DNA of 64,000 nucleotides. It comes from Candidatus Latescibacterota bacterium. GTDB lineage: Bacteria > Krumholzibacteriota > Krumholzibacteriia > WVZY01 > JAKEHA01. The notes below the pieces were generated by a model that saw nothing but the letters and a program-made list of their open reading frames with translations, had not been told where the DNA came from and did not search any database. Positions 53,860-64,000 of the stretch are shown piece by piece (within the stretch, counting starts at the first letter, position 1; every line of letters starts with the position of its first letter). The stretch is taken from assembly GCA_963736125.1 (NCBI GenBank), contig CAVTNQ010000003.1, positions 27,899 through 91,898 on the forward strand, in the 5' to 3' direction. The position numbers and the translations under genes are program-made.

Positions 53860-56130
53860 ATGACCGGCCCCAACACCGCCATCGTTTCCGTCCTCTACCT
53901 CGTCTGTGGCGTCGTCATCTTCCTCTTGGGGTTGACGCTGCTGCGCGTCGGGCGCTCCAGTGCCCCCACCCGCGCCGCGGCGTTGATGTTGTTCTTCGCG
54001 GGTCTGGGACCCCTCTTGAGCGGCTCGGGGCTCGTCCTCGAGCGCTCGCTGCGCGAGGGTGCCGTGCTCTACACGAGCATGGTGCAGAACTTCGAGTACC
54101 TCTGGGAGTTCTACTTCCCGTCGCTCCTGCTCTTTACGCTCAGCTTCCCGCGCGAAAACCGCCTGTTGAACCGCTACCCGGCGATCGGGGTCGTGGTGTT
54201 CCTCCCGTACATCTTTCACCTGGCCGCGATGGTGTTCGGCGATCGCATGCTCGAGCAGTTGATCCATCTGCCCAACGTTCTGCCCGGCGAGAGCGACGTG
54301 CACAGCGCCATCCGCGATATCGACCTCACGCGTTTCGACGCCATCGCCGCCGTGCTGGTGCGCATCCTGCAGCGCATCCATCGCAATTTGTTCGCGCTGG
54401 TGAACATCGTCTACGCGCTGGTCGCCCTCGATTTGCTGTGGCGCAGCCAGCGCGGCTTGAAGAACGTGCGGTTGTCGCGCCAGCTCCGTACCGTCGGGCT
54501 CGGTGTAGCGGCCAGTGTCGCGTGCTACACGTTCGCGAAGGTGTCGATCCTGACCAACTCCAGGCTGATGCCGACGCGCGTCAACCTGGCCCTTCTGAAT
54601 CTCTCGCTGGTCGCGAGCGGGGGGGCGATTGCCTACGCGGTGACGCGCCAGCAATTCCTGGGTGTGCGTCACATCATGCAGCGCGCGGTGCTCTATGGCG
54701 CCGTCGCCGCGTTGTTCGCGCTGGTCTACTTGGTGTTGGTACGTCCGGTGACGCTCTTCTTCGGACAGTACTCCGCGGCCAGCCAAGAGGCCTTCGAGAC
54801 CGGCTTCATCGTGATGGTGGTGCTGGCGTTCCAACCTTCCTTGGAGCGCCTGGAATCGTCGCTCGAGAACATGCTGCGTCGCGGGCGCGGCGATTTGGGT
54901 CGCAGCTTCAAGCTTTTGGGCGACGCGGTGGCCGCCGCCACCACGTTCGAAGGTCTCGAGGAAGTGGTGACGAAGGGGCTCAAGGACTCGCTGGACGCCT
55001 CGGAAGTGCGCCTGGCGTTTGCGTACGCGCCCGACGACCCGTTGGCGATCGCCCTGGCCGAGGTCGGAGAGCCGGTGCGCCGCCGCGACCTCTTGCGGGA
55101 CGCCGAGCCGCGTCGGCGCCGTTGGCAGCGCCCGCGCCGGCGCGCGGCCCTCGCCGCGTTGGAAGCCGCGCGACCGACGCTCGACCCCGAGCTCGTGCCG
55201 CCGCGCGTCGACGTATTCGTCCCGGTGGTGCAAGAGCGCCGGTGTGTGGCCTACGTGGCGCTGGGCGAGAAGACCTACGGGCTCACCTACGGCGCCGAAG
55301 AGTTGGGCCACCTTTCGCTCTTGTCGACGCAGATCGGTGCCGCCATGCAGAGCATTCGACTCTTGGCGGAAAGTGTCGAGCGCAAGGTGTTCGAAGAAGA
55401 GTTGAAGATCGCGCGCAGGATCCAGATGCAGATGCTGCCCGGCGAGCCGCCGTCGCTCGAGGGCTTCGAACTCTTCGGCGTGACCGTCCCCAGCCGTCAA
55501 GTCGGCGGCGACTACTACGACTTCGTCGTGGTCGACGGACGCTGGCTCGTGGTGGTGGTCGCGGATGTGTCGGGCAAGGGGATTCCGGCTTCGATTCTCA
55601 CCGCGACGCTGCAGGCCACGGTGCGTTCGAACGCCGACGCGCAAACCAATCCGGTCGGCATGATGGGGCGTTTGAATAGACTCCTGTACCGCAACACCAG
55701 CGCCTCCGAGTTCGCCACTGTGTTCTACGCCGTCGTGGACCTTGAAAACGGCCGCGCGCGCTACGCCAACGCGGGGCACGACTTCCCGTTCGTACTCGGT
55801 AACGGTGGCTCGCGGCAACTGGTCGAGAGCGGTCTCGTGCTCGGGTGCATCGACGAGTTCGAATACCACGAGAATCACTTCGACATTCCCGACGGGGGTG
55901 CCTTGGTGGTGTTCACCGACGGTGTCACCGACTCGGAGACGCGCTCCGGCGAGGCGTACGGTGCCGGTCGCTTGCGCGCGGTGCTCGAGCGACACGCGGG
56001 CGAGTCCGCGCGCGAGCTGTGCCGCCGCGTGATCGAGGATGTGCGCACCTTCGGCGACGGCGAAAACCAGGACGACTTGACCCTGGTGGTGCTGAAGCGT
56101 CGCGCCGGCGCGGGGGTGCTCGCACGATGA
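53860..56130 (+). CDS. Membrane-bound PP2C/SpoIIE (RsbU-like) phosphatase with multi-TM sensor and GAF-like domain
   Basis: ~8 TM N-terminus; VGGDYYD, ADVSGKG, NAGH, FTDGVTD, QDDLT. Confidence 0.88.
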   Translation: MTGPNTAIVSVLYLVCGVVIFLLGLTLLRVGRSSAPTRAAALMLFFAGLGPLLSGSGLVLERSLREGAVLYTSMVQNFEYLWEFYFPSLLLFTLSFPRENRLLNRYPAIGVVVFLPYIFHLAAMVFGDRMLEQLIHLPNVLPGESDVHSAIRDIDLTRFDAIAAVLVRILQRIHRNLFALVNIVYALVALDLLWRSQRGLKNVRLSRQLRTVGLGVAASVACYTFAKVSILTNSRLMPTRVNLALLNLSLVASGGAIAYAVTRQQFLGVRHIMQRAVLYGAVAALFALVYLVLVRPVTLFFGQYSAASQEAFETGFIVMVVLAFQPSLERLESSLENMLRRGRGDLGRSFKLLGDAVAAATTFEGLEEVVTKGLKDSLDASEVRLAFAYAPDDPLAIALAEVGEPVRRRDLLRDAEPRRRRWQRPRRRAALAALEAARPTLDPELVPPRVDVFVPVVQERRCVAYVALGEKTYGLTYGAEELGHLSLLSTQIGAAMQSIRLLAESVERKVFEEELKIARRIQMQMLPGEPPSLEGFELFGVTVPSRQVGGDYYDFVVVDGRWLVVVVADVSGKGIPASILTATLQATVRSNADAQTNPVGMMGRLNRLLYRNTSASEFATVFYAVVDLENGRARYANAGHDFPFVLGNGGSRQLVESGLVLGCIDEFEYHENHFDIPDGGALVVFTDGVTDSETRSGEAYGAGRLRAVLERHAGESARELCRRVIEDVRTFGDGENQDDLTLVVLKRRAGAGVLAR

Positions 56131-56546
56131 GCGACGAAACGGGACGCATCCTCGCGGTTGACCCGGGCGAGCGCCGCGTCGGCCTCGCCATCAGCGACCC
56201 GCTCGGCATCACGGCGCAGGGCTTGCCCACCTTCGATCGCAAGCACGGCGATGTATTCGCGCACTTGCGCGCGCTGGCGTCGCGCTACGAAATCGAGCGG
56301 GTCGTGGTGGGACGGCCACTCTCGCTGTCGGGTCGCGAGAGCGACTCCACGCGGCGCGCGGCCGAGTTCGCGCGCGCCATCGAAGACGCACTCTCGGTCC
56401 CGGTCGACTTATGGGACGAGCGGCTCTCGAGTGCGGAAGCGGAACGCGTGCTGGCCGGCACGCGCGCGGAGAAGGGAGCGGTCGACCGCGTGGCGGCCGT
56501 ACTCATCTTGCAGGGATACCTCGACGCGAGGCGTCGACCGCAATGA
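56127..56546 (+). CDS. ruvX: Pre-16S rRNA nuclease / Holliday junction resolvase-like YqgF
   Basis: LAVDPG..RVGLAISD, VVG.P, WDERLSS, DRVAA.LILQGYLD. Confidence 0.93.
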   Translation: MSDETGRILAVDPGERRVGLAISDPLGITAQGLPTFDRKHGDVFAHLRALASRYEIERVVVGRPLSLSGRESDSTRRAAEFARAIEDALSVPVDLWDERLSSAEAERVLAGTRAEKGAVDRVAAVLILQGYLDARRRPQ

Positions 56547-57583
56547 CCGCGGTGACGCACGGGGTGCGGCGCCCGCTGGCACTCGCCGCGACGTTGGTGG
56601 TGGTCGCGATGCTCGCGTTCGGGGCGTGGGTCGCCAAGGACATGCAGAAGCGCGGGCGGGACACCGGCGAGCGCGTTCGCATTACGGTCGGTGAGGGCGC
56701 GACTTTCTCGGCTGTCGTGTACGACCTCGCGGCGCGCGGTCTGGTACCACGCGCGTGGACGCTCAAGCTGTTCGCGCGCGTCACCGGCGACGACCGCCGC
56801 GTGCAACGCGGCACCTACGAGTTCGCCTCGGGCACACCACCCGTCGACATTCTGCGCGCGCTCGTGCACGGCGACGTGCTGGCCGTGCTCGTCACGATTC
56901 CGGAGGGATTCAACATGTGGCAAGTGGCGGGGGCCTACGACTCGGCCGGCGTCGACTCCGCGAGCCTCTTGTCCGCGCTCAACGACGCCGAGCTCGCGCG
57001 GTCGTTCGAAATTCCGGCTTCGACGTTGGAGGGCTATCTCTTTCCCGACACCTATCGCATCCCGTTCGGCACGACCGCGCGTCAGATTGCCGAGCACATG
57101 GCGGCACGCGCGCGCGAGGCGTGGAGTTCGGAGTACGAACGGCGCGCGCGCGATATCGGGATGTCGCGGCACGAAGTGCTGACCCTGGCCTCGATCGTCG
57201 AGGCGGAAGCGCACGCCCCCGACGAGCGGGCCACCATCGCGGCGGTCTATCACAATCGCTTGAAGAAGCACATGCGCTTGGAAGCGGATCCCACGGTCGC
57301 GTACGCGATGGGAGGGTTTCGCGGCCGGCTCTTCTACAAGGATCTCGAGATCGACTCGCCGTACAACACGTATCGGAACGCAGGCCTCCCGCCGGGGCCG
57401 ATTTGCAACCCGGGGGACGCCTCCATCCGCGCGACCCTCTATCCCGCCGACGGCGTCCACGCGTTGTACTTCGTCGCCCGCGGCGACGGGCGCCACGTGT
57501 TCTCGAACACGCTGCGCGAGCACAACGCCGCGGTGCGCGAAGCGCGTCGCAATCACGCGACGCGCGCGTCGAACGGGAGCTAG
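56543..57583 (+). CDS. mltG: Endolytic transglycosylase MltG
   Basis: TIPEG, LEGYLFPDTY, LASIVEAE, LEADPTV, SPYNTY...GLPPGPICNPG, LYFV. Confidence 0.94.
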   Translation: MTAVTHGVRRPLALAATLVVVAMLAFGAWVAKDMQKRGRDTGERVRITVGEGATFSAVVYDLAARGLVPRAWTLKLFARVTGDDRRVQRGTYEFASGTPPVDILRALVHGDVLAVLVTIPEGFNMWQVAGAYDSAGVDSASLLSALNDAELARSFEIPASTLEGYLFPDTYRIPFGTTARQIAEHMAARAREAWSSEYERRARDIGMSRHEVLTLASIVEAEAHAPDERATIAAVYHNRLKKHMRLEADPTVAYAMGGFRGRLFYKDLEIDSPYNTYRNAGLPPGPICNPGDASIRATLYPADGVHALYFVARGDGRHVFSNTLREHNAAVREARRNHATRASNGS

Positions 57584-57865: not shown

Positions 57866-57941
57866 GGGCGAATAGCTCAGTTGGTAGAGCGTCTGCTTTA
57901 CACGCAGAAGGTCACAGGTTCGAGCCCTGTTTCGCCCACCA
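57866..57941 (+). tRNA. tRNA-Val (anticodon TAC)
   Basis: GGGCGAA acceptor pairs with TTCGCCC. D-loop AGTTGGTA, anticodon loop TTTACAC, T-loop GTTCGAG, encoded CCA; 76 nt. Confidence 0.97.
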
Positions 57942-58075: not shown

Positions 58076-58105
58076 TTGACATGCCCTTTCGATCCGTGGT
58101 AGAAT
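58076..58105 (+). promoter_or_regulatory. Strong sigma70 promoter (extended -10)
   Basis: TTGACA (58076-81), 18 bp, TGn-TAGAAT (58100-05); ~125-nt 5' leader. Confidence 0.75.
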
Positions 58106-58234: not shown

Positions 58235-58873
58235 ATGTTGAAAGGAAAGTTCGCTGTGCTATCGCTTGCTGCGGCGGCTTTGCTGTGCCTGCAGTTCGCG
58301 GGCGTCAACACCGTCAATAGCGGTGTTGTCGATCCGTGTAATTCCACGGCCAGCGGTCCGGCGGGCGTTATCTTCGCGTGTCCGCAAAACGACGGCGACC
58401 TACTGGGCGCTGCCGGTTTGACGATCAACGTCACGGTGAAAGACAACGTCAACGCTCCGGTCGTCGGCGTTCCCGCGGCAGACATTTGGCTGATCGGTTG
58501 TAACGATCTGCTCGGTCTGTGCGGCGGAAGCGGCGCGATCAACGCGTCGGCGGCGACGGACATCAACGGTCAGACGACGATCACTGGCAAGATTGCGGCC
58601 GGCGGCTGCGATCTCGGTGGCGTTCGCGTGGTCGTTCAGGGTGTTGTCGTCGGCGCAGGTGTGTGCGCTGCTCCGTGCGTGGCAATCAAGGTCAAGTCGG
58701 CGGACATTAACAAGAACCTCGTCGTCAACCTGGTCGATTTCGCGACCTTTGGCGCAGGCTACACGTCGCCGCCGAAGCCGTACAACGAGTGCATTGATTA
58801 CACGGCACCGTTTGGTACCGTGACGTTGCCGGACTTCGCAAAGTACGGCTCGCACAATAACCACACGTGTTAG
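58235..58873 (+). CDS. Secreted Cys-rich Ig-like (Big_1-like) plus dockerin-like protein
   Basis: Signal peptide; TINVTVKD...PVVGVP...ATDINGQTT (invasin/Big_1-like); two EF-hand-like repeats DINKNLVVNLVDFATF and DYTAPFGTVTLPDFAKY. Confidence 0.7.
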   Translation: MLKGKFAVLSLAAAALLCLQFAGVNTVNSGVVDPCNSTASGPAGVIFACPQNDGDLLGAAGLTINVTVKDNVNAPVVGVPAADIWLIGCNDLLGLCGGSGAINASAATDINGQTTITGKIAAGGCDLGGVRVVVQGVVVGAGVCAAPCVAIKVKSADINKNLVVNLVDFATFGAGYTSPPKPYNECIDYTAPFGTVTLPDFAKYGSHNNHTC

Positions 58874-58947: not shown

Positions 58948-59520
58948 ATGAAGAGAGCTCTAGCAGGGGTGCTTGCAATCGCGTTCGTCGGCCTGATGGC
59001 CGCCGGTGCGACGGCGCAGGTGCCTTTCTTCCAAGTGTATTTCGACGATGACAGCAACGGTAGTTACGGTGAGACGCAGGCATACTGCGGCGCGCCTCTG
59101 GCGTCACAGAACCTGTATCTCGTCCTCCTGAACGCCAACACGTTCGTGGTGGCCGTCGACTACCAGGTGTCATTCCCCCCGGCGTTGTTGTTCGTGTCGG
59201 ATAACTATCCGACCGTTCCGGGTGGCTCGCTGAACCTCGGCGATTCGTTCCAAGGCAACGCCGTTTCGTACGGCCTGCCGCGTAGCGGGTTTTCGCCGAT
59301 GCTCGTGACCACCATGTCGACCCTTTGGACGGGCCAATGCGATTGCGCGACTCCGTCGCCGCTTGCGGCTGGCGGATATCCCGGCAAGTCATCGCCTGCG
59401 TTCGTTCGCTGGCCGGACTATGTAGAGTTTGCGGCGGTCGGTATGACGTCGTTGCTCTGCCCGGGTCCTGTGTCGACGCGTTCGACGACGTGGGGTAGTG
59501 TCAAGGCGCTGTACCGGTAG
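58948..59520 (+). CDS. Secreted cohesin-like beta-sandwich protein with C-terminal TWGSVKALYR
   Basis: Signal peptide, beta-rich, 4 Cys, conserved tail shared with the next two genes. Confidence 0.7.
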   Translation: MKRALAGVLAIAFVGLMAAGATAQVPFFQVYFDDDSNGSYGETQAYCGAPLASQNLYLVLLNANTFVVAVDYQVSFPPALLFVSDNYPTVPGGSLNLGDSFQGNAVSYGLPRSGFSPMLVTTMSTLWTGQCDCATPSPLAAGGYPGKSSPAFVRWPDYVEFAAVGMTSLLCPGPVSTRSTTWGSVKALYR

Positions 59521-59540
59521 TTTTGAACGTGATTGAAGTG

Positions 59541-59611
59541 GGCTGGATGAACCACGAGTTATCGGGTTCATCCACGACACGCGAACAGCGGTTCATCCAG
59601 CCTTCGTTTTT
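59541..59611 (+). terminator. Terminator-like hairpin with an alternative internal pairing
   Basis: GGCTGGATGAACC (59541-53) pairs with GGTTCATCCAGCC (59590-602), followed by TTCGTTTTT. A second GGTTCATCC sits at 59565-73. Confidence 0.55.
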
Positions 59612-59638
59612 AGCTCCAGTCCTGAAGGAGAAAGCGTA

Positions 59639-60199
59639 ATGAAAAAGGTTCTATTGATGACGTTGGCTCTGATGGTGTGTGCCATGCCGGCACTCGCCGA
59701 CCATATCGGCGTGTTCCAGGATACGGGCGGCACGAATTGCGTCATGACGCAGTTCCTCCCGTTCCCGACCCCGAACGCGATGTACATCGTCCACAAGTTC
59801 AACCCGGGTTCGACGGCCGCGCAGTTCAAGGTCAACGACCTGTCGGGCTTCATCGCCTCGGCGCAGACGACGCCGTACTTGGCGCTCGGCACGTGGAACA
59901 CCGACCTGTCGCTGGCTTACGGCGGCTGCGTCGTGGGTGACCACGTTCTGATGACGTTGAACTTCTTTGTTGTTACCCCTCCGGGGAACTGCGCCTCGAC
60001 CCTCCAGATCGTCCCGGCTCCGACTTCGCCGATCCCGGGTGCGGTTGCACTCGTCGACTGCGCGTCGCCGAGCGGCAATCTGAAGCCGGCGAGCGGTGGC
60101 AACATGTACTTCTTCGGTGGTTGCGTCGATCCGGCGGCTTGCCTCCCGACCGGCGTTTCGAACAAGACGTGGGGCGGCATCAAGGCCCTCTATCGCTAG
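59639..60199 (+). CDS. Secreted cohesin-like protein with C-terminal TWGGIKALYR
   Basis: Signal peptide, TAAQFKV, AYGGCV, PAPTSPIPG, VDCASPSGNL; AAGGAG RBS. Confidence 0.72.
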   Translation: MKKVLLMTLALMVCAMPALADHIGVFQDTGGTNCVMTQFLPFPTPNAMYIVHKFNPGSTAAQFKVNDLSGFIASAQTTPYLALGTWNTDLSLAYGGCVVGDHVLMTLNFFVVTPPGNCASTLQIVPAPTSPIPGAVALVDCASPSGNLKPASGGNMYFFGGCVDPAACLPTGVSNKTWGGIKALYR

Positions 60200-60229
60200 T
60201 CTAGGCTAGAGAGACCAAGATTCTGTTTC

Positions 60230-60276
60230 GAGACGCGCCCGGGTCGCTCAAACGACTCGGGCGCGTTTCTCTTTTG
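60230..60276 (+). terminator. Intrinsic terminator
   Basis: GAGACGCGCCCGGGTCG/CGACTCGGGCGCGTTTC stem followed by TCTTTT. Confidence 0.75.
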
Positions 60277-60471
60277 TAGAGGAGAAGCGGGCGCTCAATG
60301 GGCGACGTCGCGACTATTCGCGACGTCGCGAGTGACAGAAAAACCGCCACTTGTCCAACCGGCGGCGCGGGCGCGATCGGGCGACTGCGCCGCTTTTGAT
60401 TGCAGGCGGTGCTAGTTACCCGATCCCATGCGCGCGGCACATGCCTTGCAGAAGCAACCCCTTGAAAAATC

Positions 60472-60501
60472 TTGACAGTCCCGAGGAGCGGGGAGGATAT
60501 T
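60472..60501 (+). promoter_or_regulatory. Probable sigma70 promoter for the third TWG-tail gene
   Basis: TTGACA, 18 bp, GATATT. Confidence 0.45.
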
Positions 60502-60667
60502 CGGCTCGTCGAGGAGGAAGACGGGCCGAGCCCGACGGATTGCTCGAGATTCGTTTACAAAAGATGCGGCCGGCCAAGTGAGGTCCCTTCGCCCCGAGGG
60601 CCGGCGTCGGAGCTCCGTGAGGAATACGTTCATGGGGTTCACGGTTCTGGCAAAAGGAGCAAATATC

Positions 60668-61234
60668 ATGAAGAAGTTTGTGCTAACGGTTTTGGCGATC
60701 GCCGTCATGGCGGCGCCCGCCGCCGCGCAGGTCGGCGACATCAGTATTTATGCCGACGCCGCGGGGACGAGTTGCAACGTCGCCGACGTGACGGGCCCGT
60801 TCGTCTTCAAAGACGTCTTTCTGCTTCACAAGCACACCGGTGGCGCGACCGCGGCGCAGTTCAAGGTCAGCTTGACCGGCGGATCCACGATGGCGTTCTC
60901 GTCGCAGACCATACCGGCCGGGATGTTGAACCTGGGCAACGCGAACGACGACATCTCGATTGCCTATGGCGGCTGCGTGCAGGGTGACTTCCTGATTCTG
61001 ACGGTCACCTATATCGCATTCGGAACCAGCCCGGCGTGCGGGGCCATCGTGCTGGAGCCGGCGGCAACGTCGCCGATTCCAGGCGAGATCGCCATGGTTG
61101 ATTGCGCGATTCCGAGCGGCAACCTCGCGGTGGTCGGGAACGGACAGGCGAACATCAACCCGGACGTGACCTGCCAGTGCGACGTCGCGATACGTACGAC
61201 GACGTGGGGCTCTATCAAGGCGCTCTACCGATAG
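60668..61234 (+). CDS. Secreted cohesin-like protein with C-terminal TWGSIKALYR (paralogue of 59639..60199)
   Basis: Signal peptide, TAAQFKV, AYGGCV, PAATSPIPG, VDCAIPSGNL. Confidence 0.72.
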   Translation: MKKFVLTVLAIAVMAAPAAAQVGDISIYADAAGTSCNVADVTGPFVFKDVFLLHKHTGGATAAQFKVSLTGGSTMAFSSQTIPAGMLNLGNANDDISIAYGGCVQGDFLILTVTYIAFGTSPACGAIVLEPAATSPIPGEIAMVDCAIPSGNLAVVGNGQANINPDVTCQCDVAIRTTTWGSIKALYR

Positions 61235-61257: not shown

Positions 61258-61296
61258 CGAAGGGCCTCCGTGCAAACGGGGGCCCTTCGTGTTTTG
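61258..61296 (+). terminator. Intrinsic terminator
   Basis: CGAAGGGCCTCCGT-GCAA-ACGGGGGCCCTTCG followed by TGTTTT. Confidence 0.78.
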
Positions 61297-61323: not shown

Positions 61324-61352
61324 TTGACACGGTCCCCCGGCGCCGCTAGACT
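61324..61352 (+). promoter_or_regulatory. Sigma70 promoter for the C25 peptidase gene
   Basis: TTGACA, 17 bp, TAGACT. Confidence 0.75.
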
Positions 61353-61430
61353 TGTGTTCGACGCTACCTTTACGCCCCTAGACAACCCCTCTGGCGTAAC
61401 TTCAATTTGATTTATCAGAGAACTAGACCG

Positions 61431-64000
61431 ATGCCGGCCCGAACGTTCCTCGTCGCGACCGCCGGTGCCCTCGTGCTGTCCGTGTCGTCGGCTCGCACGG
61501 ACGCGGCGCCGAAGGGTGCGCGTGTGGCACCCGCCACCGTCGTCCAGTCGGACGCGTCGCGGGCGCGCTTCGTGGTCGACGTCCCTCGTCCGACCTTTTT
61601 GCCCTCGCCGGCACTGCCGGGCTTCGAGCGGATCGCCCTGTCGGGCTTCGAGGCCACCGGCAATCCGGGGCAGCCACCCCAGTTGTCGCGCCGCTACATG
61701 GTGGCACTTCCGCCCACCGGCACGTATGCCGTGAGCGCACGCATCCTGGCGTCGGAGCCGCTCGGATCGCACCGCTTGGAGCCCATCGCTACGCCCATCG
61801 TTATCGAAGGCGACCAAGAGATGGGCCCGACCACGAGCGAGCGCGTCGATTGGAACGAAGCGACCTACCTGGGGTGGGTCGCCCCCGACATCGCCACCTA
61901 CGACACGCCTGCGTTCATTCGACGCCAGCGCGTCCTCCCGCTCGCGGTCAATCCCGTTTTCTACGACGTCAAGACCAACGAGATCGTGGTGGCGACGCGC
62001 GTCGAGATCGACGTCCGCTTCGACGGCGGCTCGTCGTCGCGAGCGCCAGCCGCTCCCGCCGCGCGCGACGAACAATGGAACGACGTCTTCGGCCGTATGC
62101 TCGTCAACGCGCAGCAAGCACGCGCGTGGCGCGCGCCCAAGCCGGCGCTCGCGTCGAGTGCCGCCACGATGGCACGCGTCGCTCCGGGAGCGGTGAAGCT
62201 GCGCGTGCGCGACACCGGCGTGCACAAGGTCGCGGCCGCCACGTTGCTCGCCGCCGGCTTCCCGGGCGGGCAGCCGGTCGACAATTTGCGGCTGTATCGA
62301 CGCACCTACGACGACAACACGCTGACGGCGGGGGAAACCGAAGTACCGCTTTACGTGCGCGAAGGCACGGGCGGTGTCGCGGGCGTGTTCGATGCCAACG
62401 ATCTCGTCGTCTTCTACGGACTGCGTTTGCGCGACGACGCCACCCAGGGCGACACGCGCGAGCAGTACTCGTTCACCAATACGTATTGGCTGGAACCCGG
62501 GGCGGGCACACCCATGGCGACGCGCACGCCCGCGCCCGGCTTCGTCACCGCGGACACGACGACCGCATTTTTTGCCGCCACCGCGCACTTCGAAACCGAC
62601 GCCTACTTCCGCGACGGATCCACCGCGGCGTCGAACGATCTCTATTACTTCAATTCGGGCCGGGAGGCGGGGCCGGTCGACATGCCCATGACGATCGGCG
62701 CCATCCGCCCGGGCGGGAACCTCGGGATCATCGCCGAGCTGCACGGGCAGGTGTACAACCCGCCGTTGACCGCGCGCACCATCCGCCTCTCGCTCGTGAA
62801 TGGGACGGGCGAGACCGTGCTCGACGCGGCCTACACCATCAATAACAAGAACCGGCAAACCTACACGTCGGCGCCCATTCCAGCGGCCGCCGTATCCGTC
62901 GGCGCCAACCAATTTCGCGTCGCGCGTCCGCCGCTGGCGACGCGTTCCAGCGTCGAAGTGCTGATCAACTTCGTCGACGTGTCGTACGGCGCGTTGTACC
63001 GCGCGCGCGGCAACACGCTGCGCTTCAACACGGCGACGTTGGCGGGCGACACCAGCATCACCGTGACCGGTTTGTCGTCGACCACGGACTTCGAGCTGTT
63101 CGACGTCACCGCACCCACCGCACCGGTGCGTTGCATCACCGCACCGTCGAACTTCACCGCCGTGCCCGGCGGATTCGCGTTCTCGTTCCGCGAGAACATC
63201 CCGTCGCGGCGCGAATTCGTCTTGACGCCGGTCGCGCGCATGATCGACATCCCTGCCGCCGACGTCCTCCTGGACACGCCGAGTGCCATCATCGGCAGCC
63301 CCGCCGAGTCGGGCGTCGACGTGCTGGTGGTGGCGAATTCGATCTATCTCGCGCAGATGCAGACGTGGGCGACGTATCGCCGCGCGCAGGGCTACCGCGT
63401 GCTCTTGGTGGACGCCGACGACGTGTTCGACGAGTTCAACGGCGGGGTGTTGCACGCGCGCGCCATCCAGCGCTTCGCGCGTCATTTCTTCGAGCGCGGC
63501 GACGCCAGCGCCTTGGTTCTGGTCGGCGATTCGTCCGAGGACCACAAGCTGGTGCACTCCGACTCGGGCCCCAACTTCGTGCCGACCTTCACGCGCATCG
63601 ACTTCGTCAACGGCAGCCCGCCCATCGACGAGGTGGTGACCACCGACAAGCGCTTCGTCAAGCTGCCCGGACCCGGTGGCGCCCCCGCCGACGAGTACCC
63701 GGACATGATCGTGGGCCGTTTGCCGGTGGGCTCGACCACCGAGCTCGACATCGTCCTTACGAAGATCTTCGGGTTCGAAGCGCCGACCGCTTCGGAGTTC
63801 TGGCGCAAGCGCATGATCATCGTGGCCGACGACGAGTACTCGGAAGGAAGCTCGGCGTTCGGCCAGGCCTTTCGCTACTGCTTCACACCCGGCGAGAGCG
63901 GCTTCCAGGCCGGTCAGGAACAGACGGCGCAGGTCATCGAGAACTCGCTGCCCGCGGGCTACGACGTGATTCGGTTCTACTTGAAGGACTACACCTCGTC
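61431..64000 (+). CDS. Peptidase C25 (gingipain family), PorU-like; truncated by window edge
   Basis: Manual translation from ATG 61431: signal, C25-propeptide-like GNPGQPPQL..YMVALP, PorU-like VKLRVRDTGVHKV and FYG...YSFTNTYWL, then C25 core VDADDVFDEFNGG, LVLVGD, FVPT, DMIVGRLPV, IIVADD. Absent from the ORF track because it has no stop inside the window. Confidence 0.85.
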   Translation, partial: MPARTFLVATAGALVLSVSSARTDAAPKGARVAPATVVQSDASRARFVVDVPRPTFLPSPALPGFERIALSGFEATGNPGQPPQLSRRYMVALPPTGTYAVSARILASEPLGSHRLEPIATPIVIEGDQEMGPTTSERVDWNEATYLGWVAPDIATYDTPAFIRRQRVLPLAVNPVFYDVKTNEIVVATRVEIDVRFDGGSSSRAPAAPAARDEQWNDVFGRMLVNAQQARAWRAPKPALASSAATMARVAPGAVKLRVRDTGVHKVAAATLLAAGFPGGQPVDNLRLYRRTYDDNTLTAGETEVPLYVREGTGGVAGVFDANDLVVFYGLRLRDDATQGDTREQYSFTNTYWLEPGAGTPMATRTPAPGFVTADTTTAFFAATAHFETDAYFRDGSTAASNDLYYFNSGREAGPVDMPMTIGAIRPGGNLGIIAELHGQVYNPPLTARTIRLSLVNGTGETVLDAAYTINNKNRQTYTSAPIPAAAVSVGANQFRVARPPLATRSSVEVLINFVDVSYGALYRARGNTLRFNTATLAGDTSITVTGLSSTTDFELFDVTAPTAPVRCITAPSNFTAVPGGFAFSFRENIPSRREFVLTPVARMIDIPAADVLLDTPSAIIGSPAESGVDVLVVANSIYLAQMQTWATYRRAQGYRVLLVDADDVFDEFNGGVLHARAIQRFARHFFERGDASALVLVGDSSEDHKLVHSDSGPNFVPTFTRIDFVNGSPPIDEVVTTDKRFVKLPGPGGAPADEYPDMIVGRLPVGSTTELDIVLTKIFGFEAPTASEFWRKRMIIVADDEYSEGSSAFGQAFRYCFTPGESGFQAGQEQTAQVIENSLPAGYDVIRFYLKDYTS

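Follow-up and report, generated by a model that had tools for sequence, protein, structure and literature searches.

TWGx[VI]KALYR, a candidate C-terminal sorting or attachment tag encoded beside a PorU-like C25 peptidase in an uncultured bacterial phylum

Results

Three genes ending in one decapeptide precede a C25 peptidase gene

We analysed a 64,000-nucleotide stretch of DNA, hereafter the window, from a Candidatus Latescibacterota bacterium (GenBank assembly GCA_963736125.1, contig CAVTNQ010000003.1, positions 27,899 to 91,898 of the forward strand). Three open reading frames (ORFs) of the window encode proteins with the C-terminal decapeptide TWGx[VI]KALYR, which a sequence-only reading of this DNA had put forward as a novel sorting or anchoring signal. 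The bodies of these proteins belong to a cohesin-like family that we call family A. The next gene of interest encodes PorU-L, a C25 cysteine peptidase with a type IX secretion system (T9SS) C-terminal domain (CTD).

58948..59520, + strand: ORF1, a 190-aa exported protein, remote member of the cohesin-like family A, with the tail at its C-terminus
59467..59517, + strand: tag of ORF1, made up of the linker PVSTRST and the core TWGSVKALYR (core 59488-59517)
59639..60199, + strand: ORF2, a 186-aa exported cohesin-like family A protein; tail core TWGGIKALYR at 60167-60196
60668..61234, + strand: ORF3, a 188-aa exported cohesin-like family A protein; tail core TWGSIKALYR at 61202-61231
61407..64000, + strand: PorU-L, a 1384-aa exported C25 cysteine peptidase of PorU-like architecture with its own T9SS CTD; the gene runs off the window and ends at C3:93459 of the genome

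The three tailed ORFs lie on the same strand, encode 186-190 residues, begin with a classical N-terminal signal peptide and reach their stop codon directly after the tail. The decapeptides occupy the positions that the sequence-only reading had given them and, as it had also noted, each follows a Cys and a linker rich in P, V, S and T. Scanning of ORF1-3 against Pfam and NCBIfam returned nothing at E ≤ 1. The same reading had described ORF1 as very divergent from ORF2 and ORF3, and had taken this as a sign that the tail is under separate selection. The divergence is real, but the proteins are not unrelated: ORF1 aligns with family A at an hhalign probability of 96%, which makes it a distant member. 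Its distant homology to ORF2 and ORF3 makes the argument for separate selection that can be drawn from the window alone weaker than was claimed, and the case is carried by the genome-wide data.

The tail is found on many exported proteins with unrelated bodies

The whole source genome (3.5 Mb, 64% GC, five contigs) was scanned in six frames with the pattern WG.[VILM]K..[YF][RK]. This gave 36 matches, every one of which sits 0-2 residues before a stop codon, a pattern well outside what chance would produce, and 34 of them are on full-length proteins with a signal peptide. When signal peptide and tail were removed, the bodies of these 34 carriers fell into 17 blastp clusters, so that the tail is not confined to a single domain family. 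Family A has 15 members among the carriers, ORF2 and ORF3 included; beyond it the bodies include lamin-tail (LTD), CHRD, right-handed beta-helix, SnoaL-like and PPC-like folds. The tag is thus present on about 36 proteins of many unrelated folds which, from their signal peptides, are exported by the Sec pathway. The tailed proteins are small, with a median of 209 residues and a maximum of 397.

The full tag of about 18 residues, P-[VL]-[PSA]-[TVA]-x-[TS]-[ST]-T-W-G-x-[IV]-K-[AS]-[LM]-Y-R, consists of a more weakly conserved linker, P-[VL]-[PSA]-[TVA]-x-[TS]-[ST], and the core T-W-G-x-[IV]-K-[AS]-[LM]-Y-R, in which T, W, G, K and Y show little or no variation across the 36 copies. Synonymous codon differences occur at every position of the tail, and the mean pairwise nucleotide identity is 0.73; the tail is therefore conserved at the protein level and is not a DNA repeat. 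Isolated tails matched no Pfam or NCBIfam model even at E ≤ 10. No description of the tail was found in the literature on Eisenbacteria and type IX secretion, on PorU paralogues, or on Krumholzibacteriota or Eisenbacteria and C-terminal secretion, in agreement with the earlier view that it is not a characterised signal.

Some carriers have unusual layouts. Two of them, C3:9644-10441 (+) and C5:88702-89895 (-), have lipoprotein-type signal peptides (L-G-C and S-G-C), and would be expected to have a lipid-anchored N-terminus together with a tagged C-terminus. The second is a 397-aa protein built by internal duplication of a SnoaL-like module; a decayed tail (RTLGAMKSLYAG) lies at the junction of the two copies, and the terminal copy is intact (TWGAIKALYR). 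It appears that module and tail were duplicated together and that the internal tail drifted afterwards. The product of C1:593950-595005 (-) has two tandem cohesin-like family A modules separated by a poly-Pro linker, with the tail on the last module only. A cluster of four tail genes lies at C1:822-828 kb, and nothing related was found among its neighbouring genes.

The tail is widespread in the phylum and changes in concert between lineages

We searched a sample of 201 genomes from 80 genera of the phylum with a DNA pattern that joins the tail to a stop codon. It matched 125 of these genomes, representing 60 of the genera, and the reversed pattern, used as a control, matched none. In the genus of the window, strict copies of the tail number 9-27 per genome. 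When bacteria and archaea were covered at one genome per species, the matches listed were mainly metagenome-assembled genomes deposited as Candidatus Eisenbacteria; further labels among them were Krumholzibacteriota, Latescibacterota, Zixibacteria, Gemmatimonadota and "Fibrobacteraceae". Such labels are not reliable, several of the records having proved to be from the phylum or even the genus of the window. The organism labels at NCBI are inconsistent within this GTDB phylum, the loci that we designate L037-L153 and L204-L212 being spread over Eisenbacteria, Krumholzibacteriota, Latescibacterota and "Fibrobacteraceae". Even relatives in the genus or family of the window have been deposited under two phylum names (Latescibacterota and Krumholzibacteriia).

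Other lineages have tails of their own. In the family f3, the family A genes 5' of PorU-L end in [ST]WSxVKxLF, a variant present in 14 copies in one genome (G001) and 9 in another (G004), spread over several contigs, and found on family A as well as on unrelated bodies such as beta-helix proteins of 370-440 residues. Variants of further lineages are SFGxVKSLFR, TFGGVKNLYR, SWSEIKTLYR, SWGAVKARF, SWGAVKSMYR and SWGAIKSMYE. Families that scored zero are not to be taken as tail-less, a reading that we rejected, since variant tails escape the strict pattern. The tail alters in concert across all carriers of a lineage. Such concerted change implies a shared protein reader, and it disfavours a generic lipid-binding helix.

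The tail is predicted to be a flexible, helix-prone appendage

In an AlphaFold2 model of ORF3 (m9e5a31fd0d97, from an alignment of 28 sequences), the body, residues 22-170, is a beta-sandwich with a pLDDT of 80-94. The pLDDT of the tail, residues 175-188, is below 50, with a five-residue helix at 182-186, and the tail is not docked onto its own body in cis. A second model was made for an unrelated carrier, C1:725035-725604, from 68 sequences: the body has a pLDDT of about 95 (80-97 for the bodies of the two models), and the tail forms an 11-residue helix at residues 178-188 with a pLDDT of 67-73. By Foldseek, this second body falls among pre-peptidase C-terminal and collagen-binding domains. 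In these models of two unrelated carriers, then, the tail is a detached segment of low confidence rather than an integral structural element, and we take it to be a flexible, helix-prone appendage outside the fold. The sequence-only reading had expected a short amphipathic, basic helix. A short helix is indeed predicted in both models, and a helical wheel reasoned from the sequence places W, I/V, L and Y on one face with K and R flanking it.

A Foldseek search of the PDB with the ORF3 body returned cohesin modules as its top ~40 matches, among them 4ums, 5nrm_A, 2vo8 and 2jh2_C, with E-values of 1e-5 to 1e-4 and TM-scores (target) of 0.54-0.74. As modelled, the bodies of ORF1-3 would have the nine-stranded jelly-roll beta-sandwich that is the criterion for a cohesin, a likeness at the level of fold with no match to a sequence model.

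PorU-L is a deep paralogue of the T9SS sortase PorU

The part of PorU-L that lies in the window matches PF01364 with an E-value of 1.5e-32, and PorU-L scores 172 bits on that model. Its scores on the models for PorU (NF033707; 184 bits, cut-off 420) and PorU2 (NF052324; 107 bits, cut-off 450) are below threshold. The CTD match falls just under its cut-off, and the sequence ends NYPNPF...GTYLYV. The genome has a T9SS, as judged by about 45 CTD proteins, a true PorU above the curated cut-off and a PorV-like gene. It holds six C25 peptidase genes: the true PorU, PorU-L and four that are gingipain-like. The true PorU, at C2:1643843, scores 549 bits on NF033707 and has the PorV-like gene just downstream; it is 22% identical to PorU-L, which has no PorV-like gene next to it.

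Matches to PorU-L at E ≤ 1e-60 were present in 181 of the 201 genomes of the phylum, mostly full-length and with identities of 27-79%. Each fetched homologue for which both scores were reported scored higher against PorU-L than against PorU (for example, 317 versus 166 bits), and the motifs with the putative catalytic His (Q[SAG]H) and Cys (GCH) are retained by homologues throughout the phylum. On these comparisons PorU-L is a deep, catalytically intact paralogue of PorU and no recent duplicate, and it has the features by which a PorU is recognised, namely a C25 fold, a putative catalytic His/Cys dyad and a CTD of its own.

In one single-contig genome of the same genus (locus L021, G019:C1:2727051-2729514), the PorU-L homologue is split into two adjacent frames by a frameshift or a sequencing error. 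Elsewhere in the genome of the window, at C2:839509-853255 (+), three large gingipain-like C25 proteins of 1660-1670 residues are encoded in a row; they have FG-GAP/VCBS-like repeats and a T9SS CTD, and over the last ~150 residues they hardly differ from one another.

Tail-bearing family A genes and PorU-L form a conserved locus

In 37 of 41 evaluable PorU-L loci, with PorU-L identities down to 28%, one to three tail-bearing family A genes lie directly upstream on the same strand. For the families f1, f2 and f5, all 17 loci that have a tail gene and 1 kb or more of sequence upstream show one or two tail genes directly 5' of PorU-L, and the upstream ORF belongs to family A in each locus that has a comparable full-length ORF; one evaluable locus of this set (L027) is without upstream tail genes. 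Among the 19 fetched evaluable loci of families f3, f4 and f6-f9, 16 have one to three family A genes upstream. Four further loci have the same arrangement, one of them (L211) in a genome that the sample did not include. Tail genes whose bodies do not belong to family A lie directly upstream of gingipain-like C25 genes in two other genomes, so that the pairing of tail and C25 peptidase extends beyond family A. One tail-rich genome (G206) lacks PorU-L and looked like counter-evidence, but its relatives are members of the genus of the window; it is therefore to be placed with them, and its assembly is probably incomplete, with the gene missing (compare G144).

The locus contains one more conserved gene, ORF0, and several candidate regulatory sites.

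57866-57941: tRNA-Val (anticodon TAC), directly upstream of the ORF0/family A/PorU-L locus
58076..58105, + strand: promoter-like site ahead of ORF0, TTGACA-18-TAGAAT, 11/12 matches with a TG extension; a consensus match only
58235..58873, + strand: ORF0, an exported Cys-rich protein without the tail; C-terminal dockerin-like EF-loop motifs (DINKNLVVNLVD...) and a terminal Cys
60230..60269, + strand: strong terminator-like hairpin of the intrinsic type after ORF2, 17-bp stem with 12 GC pairs and a T run
60472..60501, + strand: promoter-like site ahead of ORF3; a consensus match only
61258..61289, + strand: strong terminator-like hairpin of the intrinsic type after ORF3, 14-bp stem
61324..61352, + strand: promoter-like site ahead of PorU-L; a consensus match only

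Homologues of ORF0 are found beside the PorU-like gene in seven other loci, making it a conserved member of the locus. A paralogue at C2:98336-98752 (-) encodes a small exported protein that consists of little beyond two clear D-x-[DN]-x-[DN]-G-x-[IV] loops; the Pfam EF-hand and Dockerin_1 models reach its dockerin-like module below threshold (E 0.03-0.1). Judged by these predicted sites, the layout of hairpins and promoters looks like the one commonly seen where highly expressed structural genes stand in front of the gene for an enzyme.

The tail takes the place of other C-terminal signals

An exhaustive HMMER search with C1:725035-725604 as query found 890 relatives, and the C-termini of the best 150 representatives were classed by rough regular expressions. 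At least 50 of these 150 have PEP-CTERM-like tails (VPEP, a transmembrane helix and RRR) starting at the same "...YSLEFVV" junction, 9 have TWG-like tails, 9 have another tail with a transmembrane segment and basic residues, 1 has a T9SS CTD, and several have dockerin-like repeats at the end. The TWG tail thus occupies the junction that PEP-CTERM-like signals use in homologues, which supports its earlier interpretation as a sorting signal. Close homologues of one carrier kept the tail in 116 of 120 cases, a result that is uninformative on alternative anchors. The CTDs of the genome are FlgD-like, and most are in open frames of about 350-2400 residues. No protein with both the tail and a T9SS CTD was found in this genome, nor in the 201 genomes at a spacing of 7-17 residues. 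Located at the junction of PEP-CTERM-like signals and exclusive with the CTD, the tail therefore acts as an alternative "choice of anchor".

The resemblance to the T9SS is that of a C-terminal signal on Sec-exported proteins of the Fibrobacteres-Chlorobi-Bacteroidetes (FCB) group, with a PorU-type C25 peptidase gene beside substrate genes; mutual exclusion of tail and CTD is what one expects of alternative signals. The tag differs in that it has 10-18 residues and is flexible or helical, whereas the type A CTD is an Ig-like beta-sandwich of 70-100 residues; the tail matches no CTD model (TIGR04183, PF18962), lacks that fold, and the neighbouring enzyme is only distantly related to PorU and scores below the cut-offs for both PorU and PorU2. 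PMC11285876 describes the known T9SS signals as folded domains of 70-100 residues. With PEP-CTERM and VPLPA-CTERM (TIGR02595, TIGR03370) the tail shares, besides the junction after the same body domain, its carriers, which are typical small surface proteins of the LTD, CHRD and PPC-like kinds. In contrast to those signals, it has no PEP motif, hydrophobic stretch, transmembrane helix or terminal Arg cluster and ends in YR, and no PEP-CTERM-like proteins were found in the genome (exosortase genes were not searched for).

Other known signals are further removed. None of the 36 tails has the motif or the transmembrane segment of the LPXTG sortase signal (TIGR01167). Unlike the beta-signal of outer-membrane proteins, the tail ends in R or in one or two extra polar residues and not in a terminal aromatic residue, and its carriers are soluble beta-sandwich or beta-helix proteins instead of beta-barrels. 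It also lacks the D/N calcium-binding loop of a dockerin (PF00404), a module defined by two EF-loop repeats of ~22 residues, has no Pfam match and is about one seventh of a dockerin in length. The locus as a whole recalls the cohesin-dockerin pairs of cellulosomes (PF00963, PF00404), since the main carrier family has a cohesin-like fold, for which a helical peptide partner is plausible, and the conserved locus also has a gene for a dockerin-like protein; here, however, the Pfam cohesin and dockerin models are below threshold. It likewise recalls Gram-positive sortase-pilus operons, in which, as here, one to three paralogous genes for small beta-sandwich substrates, each ending in a signal, are followed by a dedicated enzyme of the cysteine transpeptidase type; two of the three substrate genes of the window are in addition followed by strong terminator-like hairpins. 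The differences are an envelope of the Gram-negative type, a C25 enzyme unrelated to sortase, the lack of LPXTG and of a membrane anchor, and polymerisation that is purely hypothetical in our case. Finally, the type V pili of Bacteroidia (FimA/Mfa1) are matured by C25 gingipains and polymerised via C-terminal strands, so that there, too, C25 peptidases act on subunits of a surface fibre and a conserved C-terminal segment mediates assembly. Those pilins, however, are lipoprotein precursors with two transthyretin-like domains that assemble by donation of a beta-strand, whereas the proteins described here have SPI-type signal peptides, a cohesin-like fold and a predicted helical tail.

Discussion

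The tail is most likely a new sorting or attachment signal that dispenses with a membrane anchor. We propose more specifically, with confidence a little short of even, that TWGx[VI]KALYR is the invariant core of a tag for sorting or attachment, located at the C-terminus and devoid of transmembrane segments and folded domains, and that PorU-L is the candidate reader. The tag would be read by one protein partner at the cell envelope, for which PorU-L, as a reader or processing enzyme, is the best candidate. Its own T9SS CTD would bring PorU-L to the cell surface, where it may bind the tail, cut in the small-residue linker and then pass the protein on to an acceptor at the surface or to a further subunit, by analogy with PorU or with pilus sortases. 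Its principal substrates would be the cohesin-like family A proteins whose genes precede that of PorU-L; they may form a surface scaffold, and the dockerin-like ORF0 could dock on it. Pilus sortase operons are the second of the two analogies for the transfer step. The first, on which this step is modelled, is PorU as portrayed in PMC4560394 and PMC8545088.

Several points weigh against this proposal. Cleavage of the tail and its processing by PorU-L are steps that we infer, and the AlphaFold2 models are of monomers only. We know of no route by which a protein with a ten-residue signal would cross the outer membrane to reach an enzyme located at the surface, and the model leaves the passage of the tailed proteins unexplained. 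The synteny with PorU-L involves the cohesin-like family only, the other ~30 carriers being scattered in the genome, and the link could consequently be one with the body rather than with the tail. Nearly every genome of the phylum has PorU-L, so that profiling of presence and absence does not discriminate. Lastly, a genome outside the sampled set with 25 tails and a fragmented assembly (G207) showed only PorU and gingipain-like C25 genes.

A different role for the tail, rather unlikely in our estimation, is that of a non-covalent docking peptide, a minimal dockerin-like helix that inserts into a receptor, possibly the family A cohesin-like domains, and builds a surface complex without cleavage; PorU-L would then adjoin these genes on other grounds, for instance because it matures family A. 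Cohesins bind helical dockerins, and the ORF3 body retrieved cohesins throughout its top ~40 Foldseek matches with TM-scores up to 0.74. The hydrophobic face of the predicted amphipathic helix and the conservation of dockerin-like ORF0 in the locus fit this explanation, and an invariant T/W/G/K together with concerted changes between lineages would suit a specific protein-peptide interface. However, the family A proteins themselves bear the tail, AlphaFold2 leaves it undocked on the body in cis, and it has no calcium-binding loops and is far shorter than a dockerin; docking also leaves the conserved catalytic dyad of the adjoining peptidase unexplained. We think it improbable that the tail is instead a minimal T9SS export signal or piggy-back adaptor which, in the periplasm, binds a CTD-bearing carrier such as PorU-L, or a PorV-like shuttle, and lets small folded proteins leave through the T9SS translocon. 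The named records that hold the tail are from FCB-type lineages, the genome has a T9SS, the tailed proteins are small next to most CTD frames, tail and CTD never occur together, and PorU-L has a CTD. To our knowledge, though, piggy-back export by the T9SS has no precedent, no PorV-like gene adjoins PorU-L, and a ten-residue peptide is far from the folded 70-100-residue domains described in PMC11285876.

Concerted change between lineages also bears on the view that the tail is a generic amphipathic basic helix that binds membrane or lipopolysaccharide and tethers proteins to the outer-membrane leaflet without a protein partner. A predicted helix of the kind that the sequence-only reading had suggested, in which K and R flank a hydrophobic face of W, I/V, L and Y, would suit such a role; yet a decapeptide would anchor weakly, substitutions are tolerated in lipid-binding helices whereas the residues T, W, G, K and Y vary hardly or not at all among the 36 copies, and the motif shifts in concert between lineages. 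Furthermore, two carriers already have lipoprotein signal peptides, and the conserved linkage to C25 peptidase genes is left unexplained, so that little probability falls to this view. Least probable of all, at a level that we regard as negligible, is that the tail lacks any signal function and is the last structural element of one family, or a DNA repeat spread by chance or recombination. It is true that the three window proteins are all in one cohesin-like family, but this reading is refuted by the 17 body clusters, by the position of the tail outside the fold in two unrelated models, by the synonymous scrambling of its codons and by the absence of the reversed pattern from 201 genomes.

There is a real chance that the tail represents a new class of signal with its own C25-type sortase. 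A broader idea, which we consider unlikely and offer as speculation, is that PorU-L, the tail, cohesin-like family A and dockerin-like ORF0 together constitute an unrecognised surface-assembly system of Gram-negative FCB bacteria, in which a C25 transpeptidase, a second "sortase" other than PorU, would read a ten-residue helical signal and covalently attach or polymerise cohesin-like subunits into a cell-surface scaffold displaying dockerin-bearing and other tailed proteins. Were this so, a cellulosome-like or pilus-like apparatus would be built by T9SS-related machinery, with a signal that requires no membrane anchor and no folded domain.

LPXTG, PEP-CTERM, GlyGly-CTERM and the T9SS CTD are C-terminal sorting signals through each of which a dedicated machinery of the envelope came to light. 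The present tail marks dozens of exported proteins per genome throughout an uncultured phylum, as well as in relatives filed under Eisenbacteria, Krumholzibacteriota, Latescibacterota and Gemmatimonadota, proteins that are annotated as plain hypotheticals because no Pfam or NCBIfam model matches the tail. Surface sorting by a short tag that has no fold and no transmembrane segment would be new in structural terms, and the conserved pairing of tail-bearing cohesin-like genes with a PorU-like C25 peptidase gene behind them is a concrete, testable candidate for its machinery. A hidden Markov model of the tail would improve the prediction of surface proteomes in these lineages. What is new here is the PorU-L/cohesin-like/dockerin-like locus, the concerted lineage variants and the structural models.

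Neighbouring genes

The genes upstream of the locus look ordinary. Going by motifs in the translations, the region 53860-57583 of the window codes for a multi-pass membrane protein of 756 residues with a PP2C/SpoIIE-type phosphatase motif (GGDYYD) at its end, for a YqgF/RuvX-like resolvase and for an MltG/YceG-like protein. On the downstream side of PorU-L there are MurQ-, AnmK-, SpoIID- and NagZ-like genes of cell-wall recycling.

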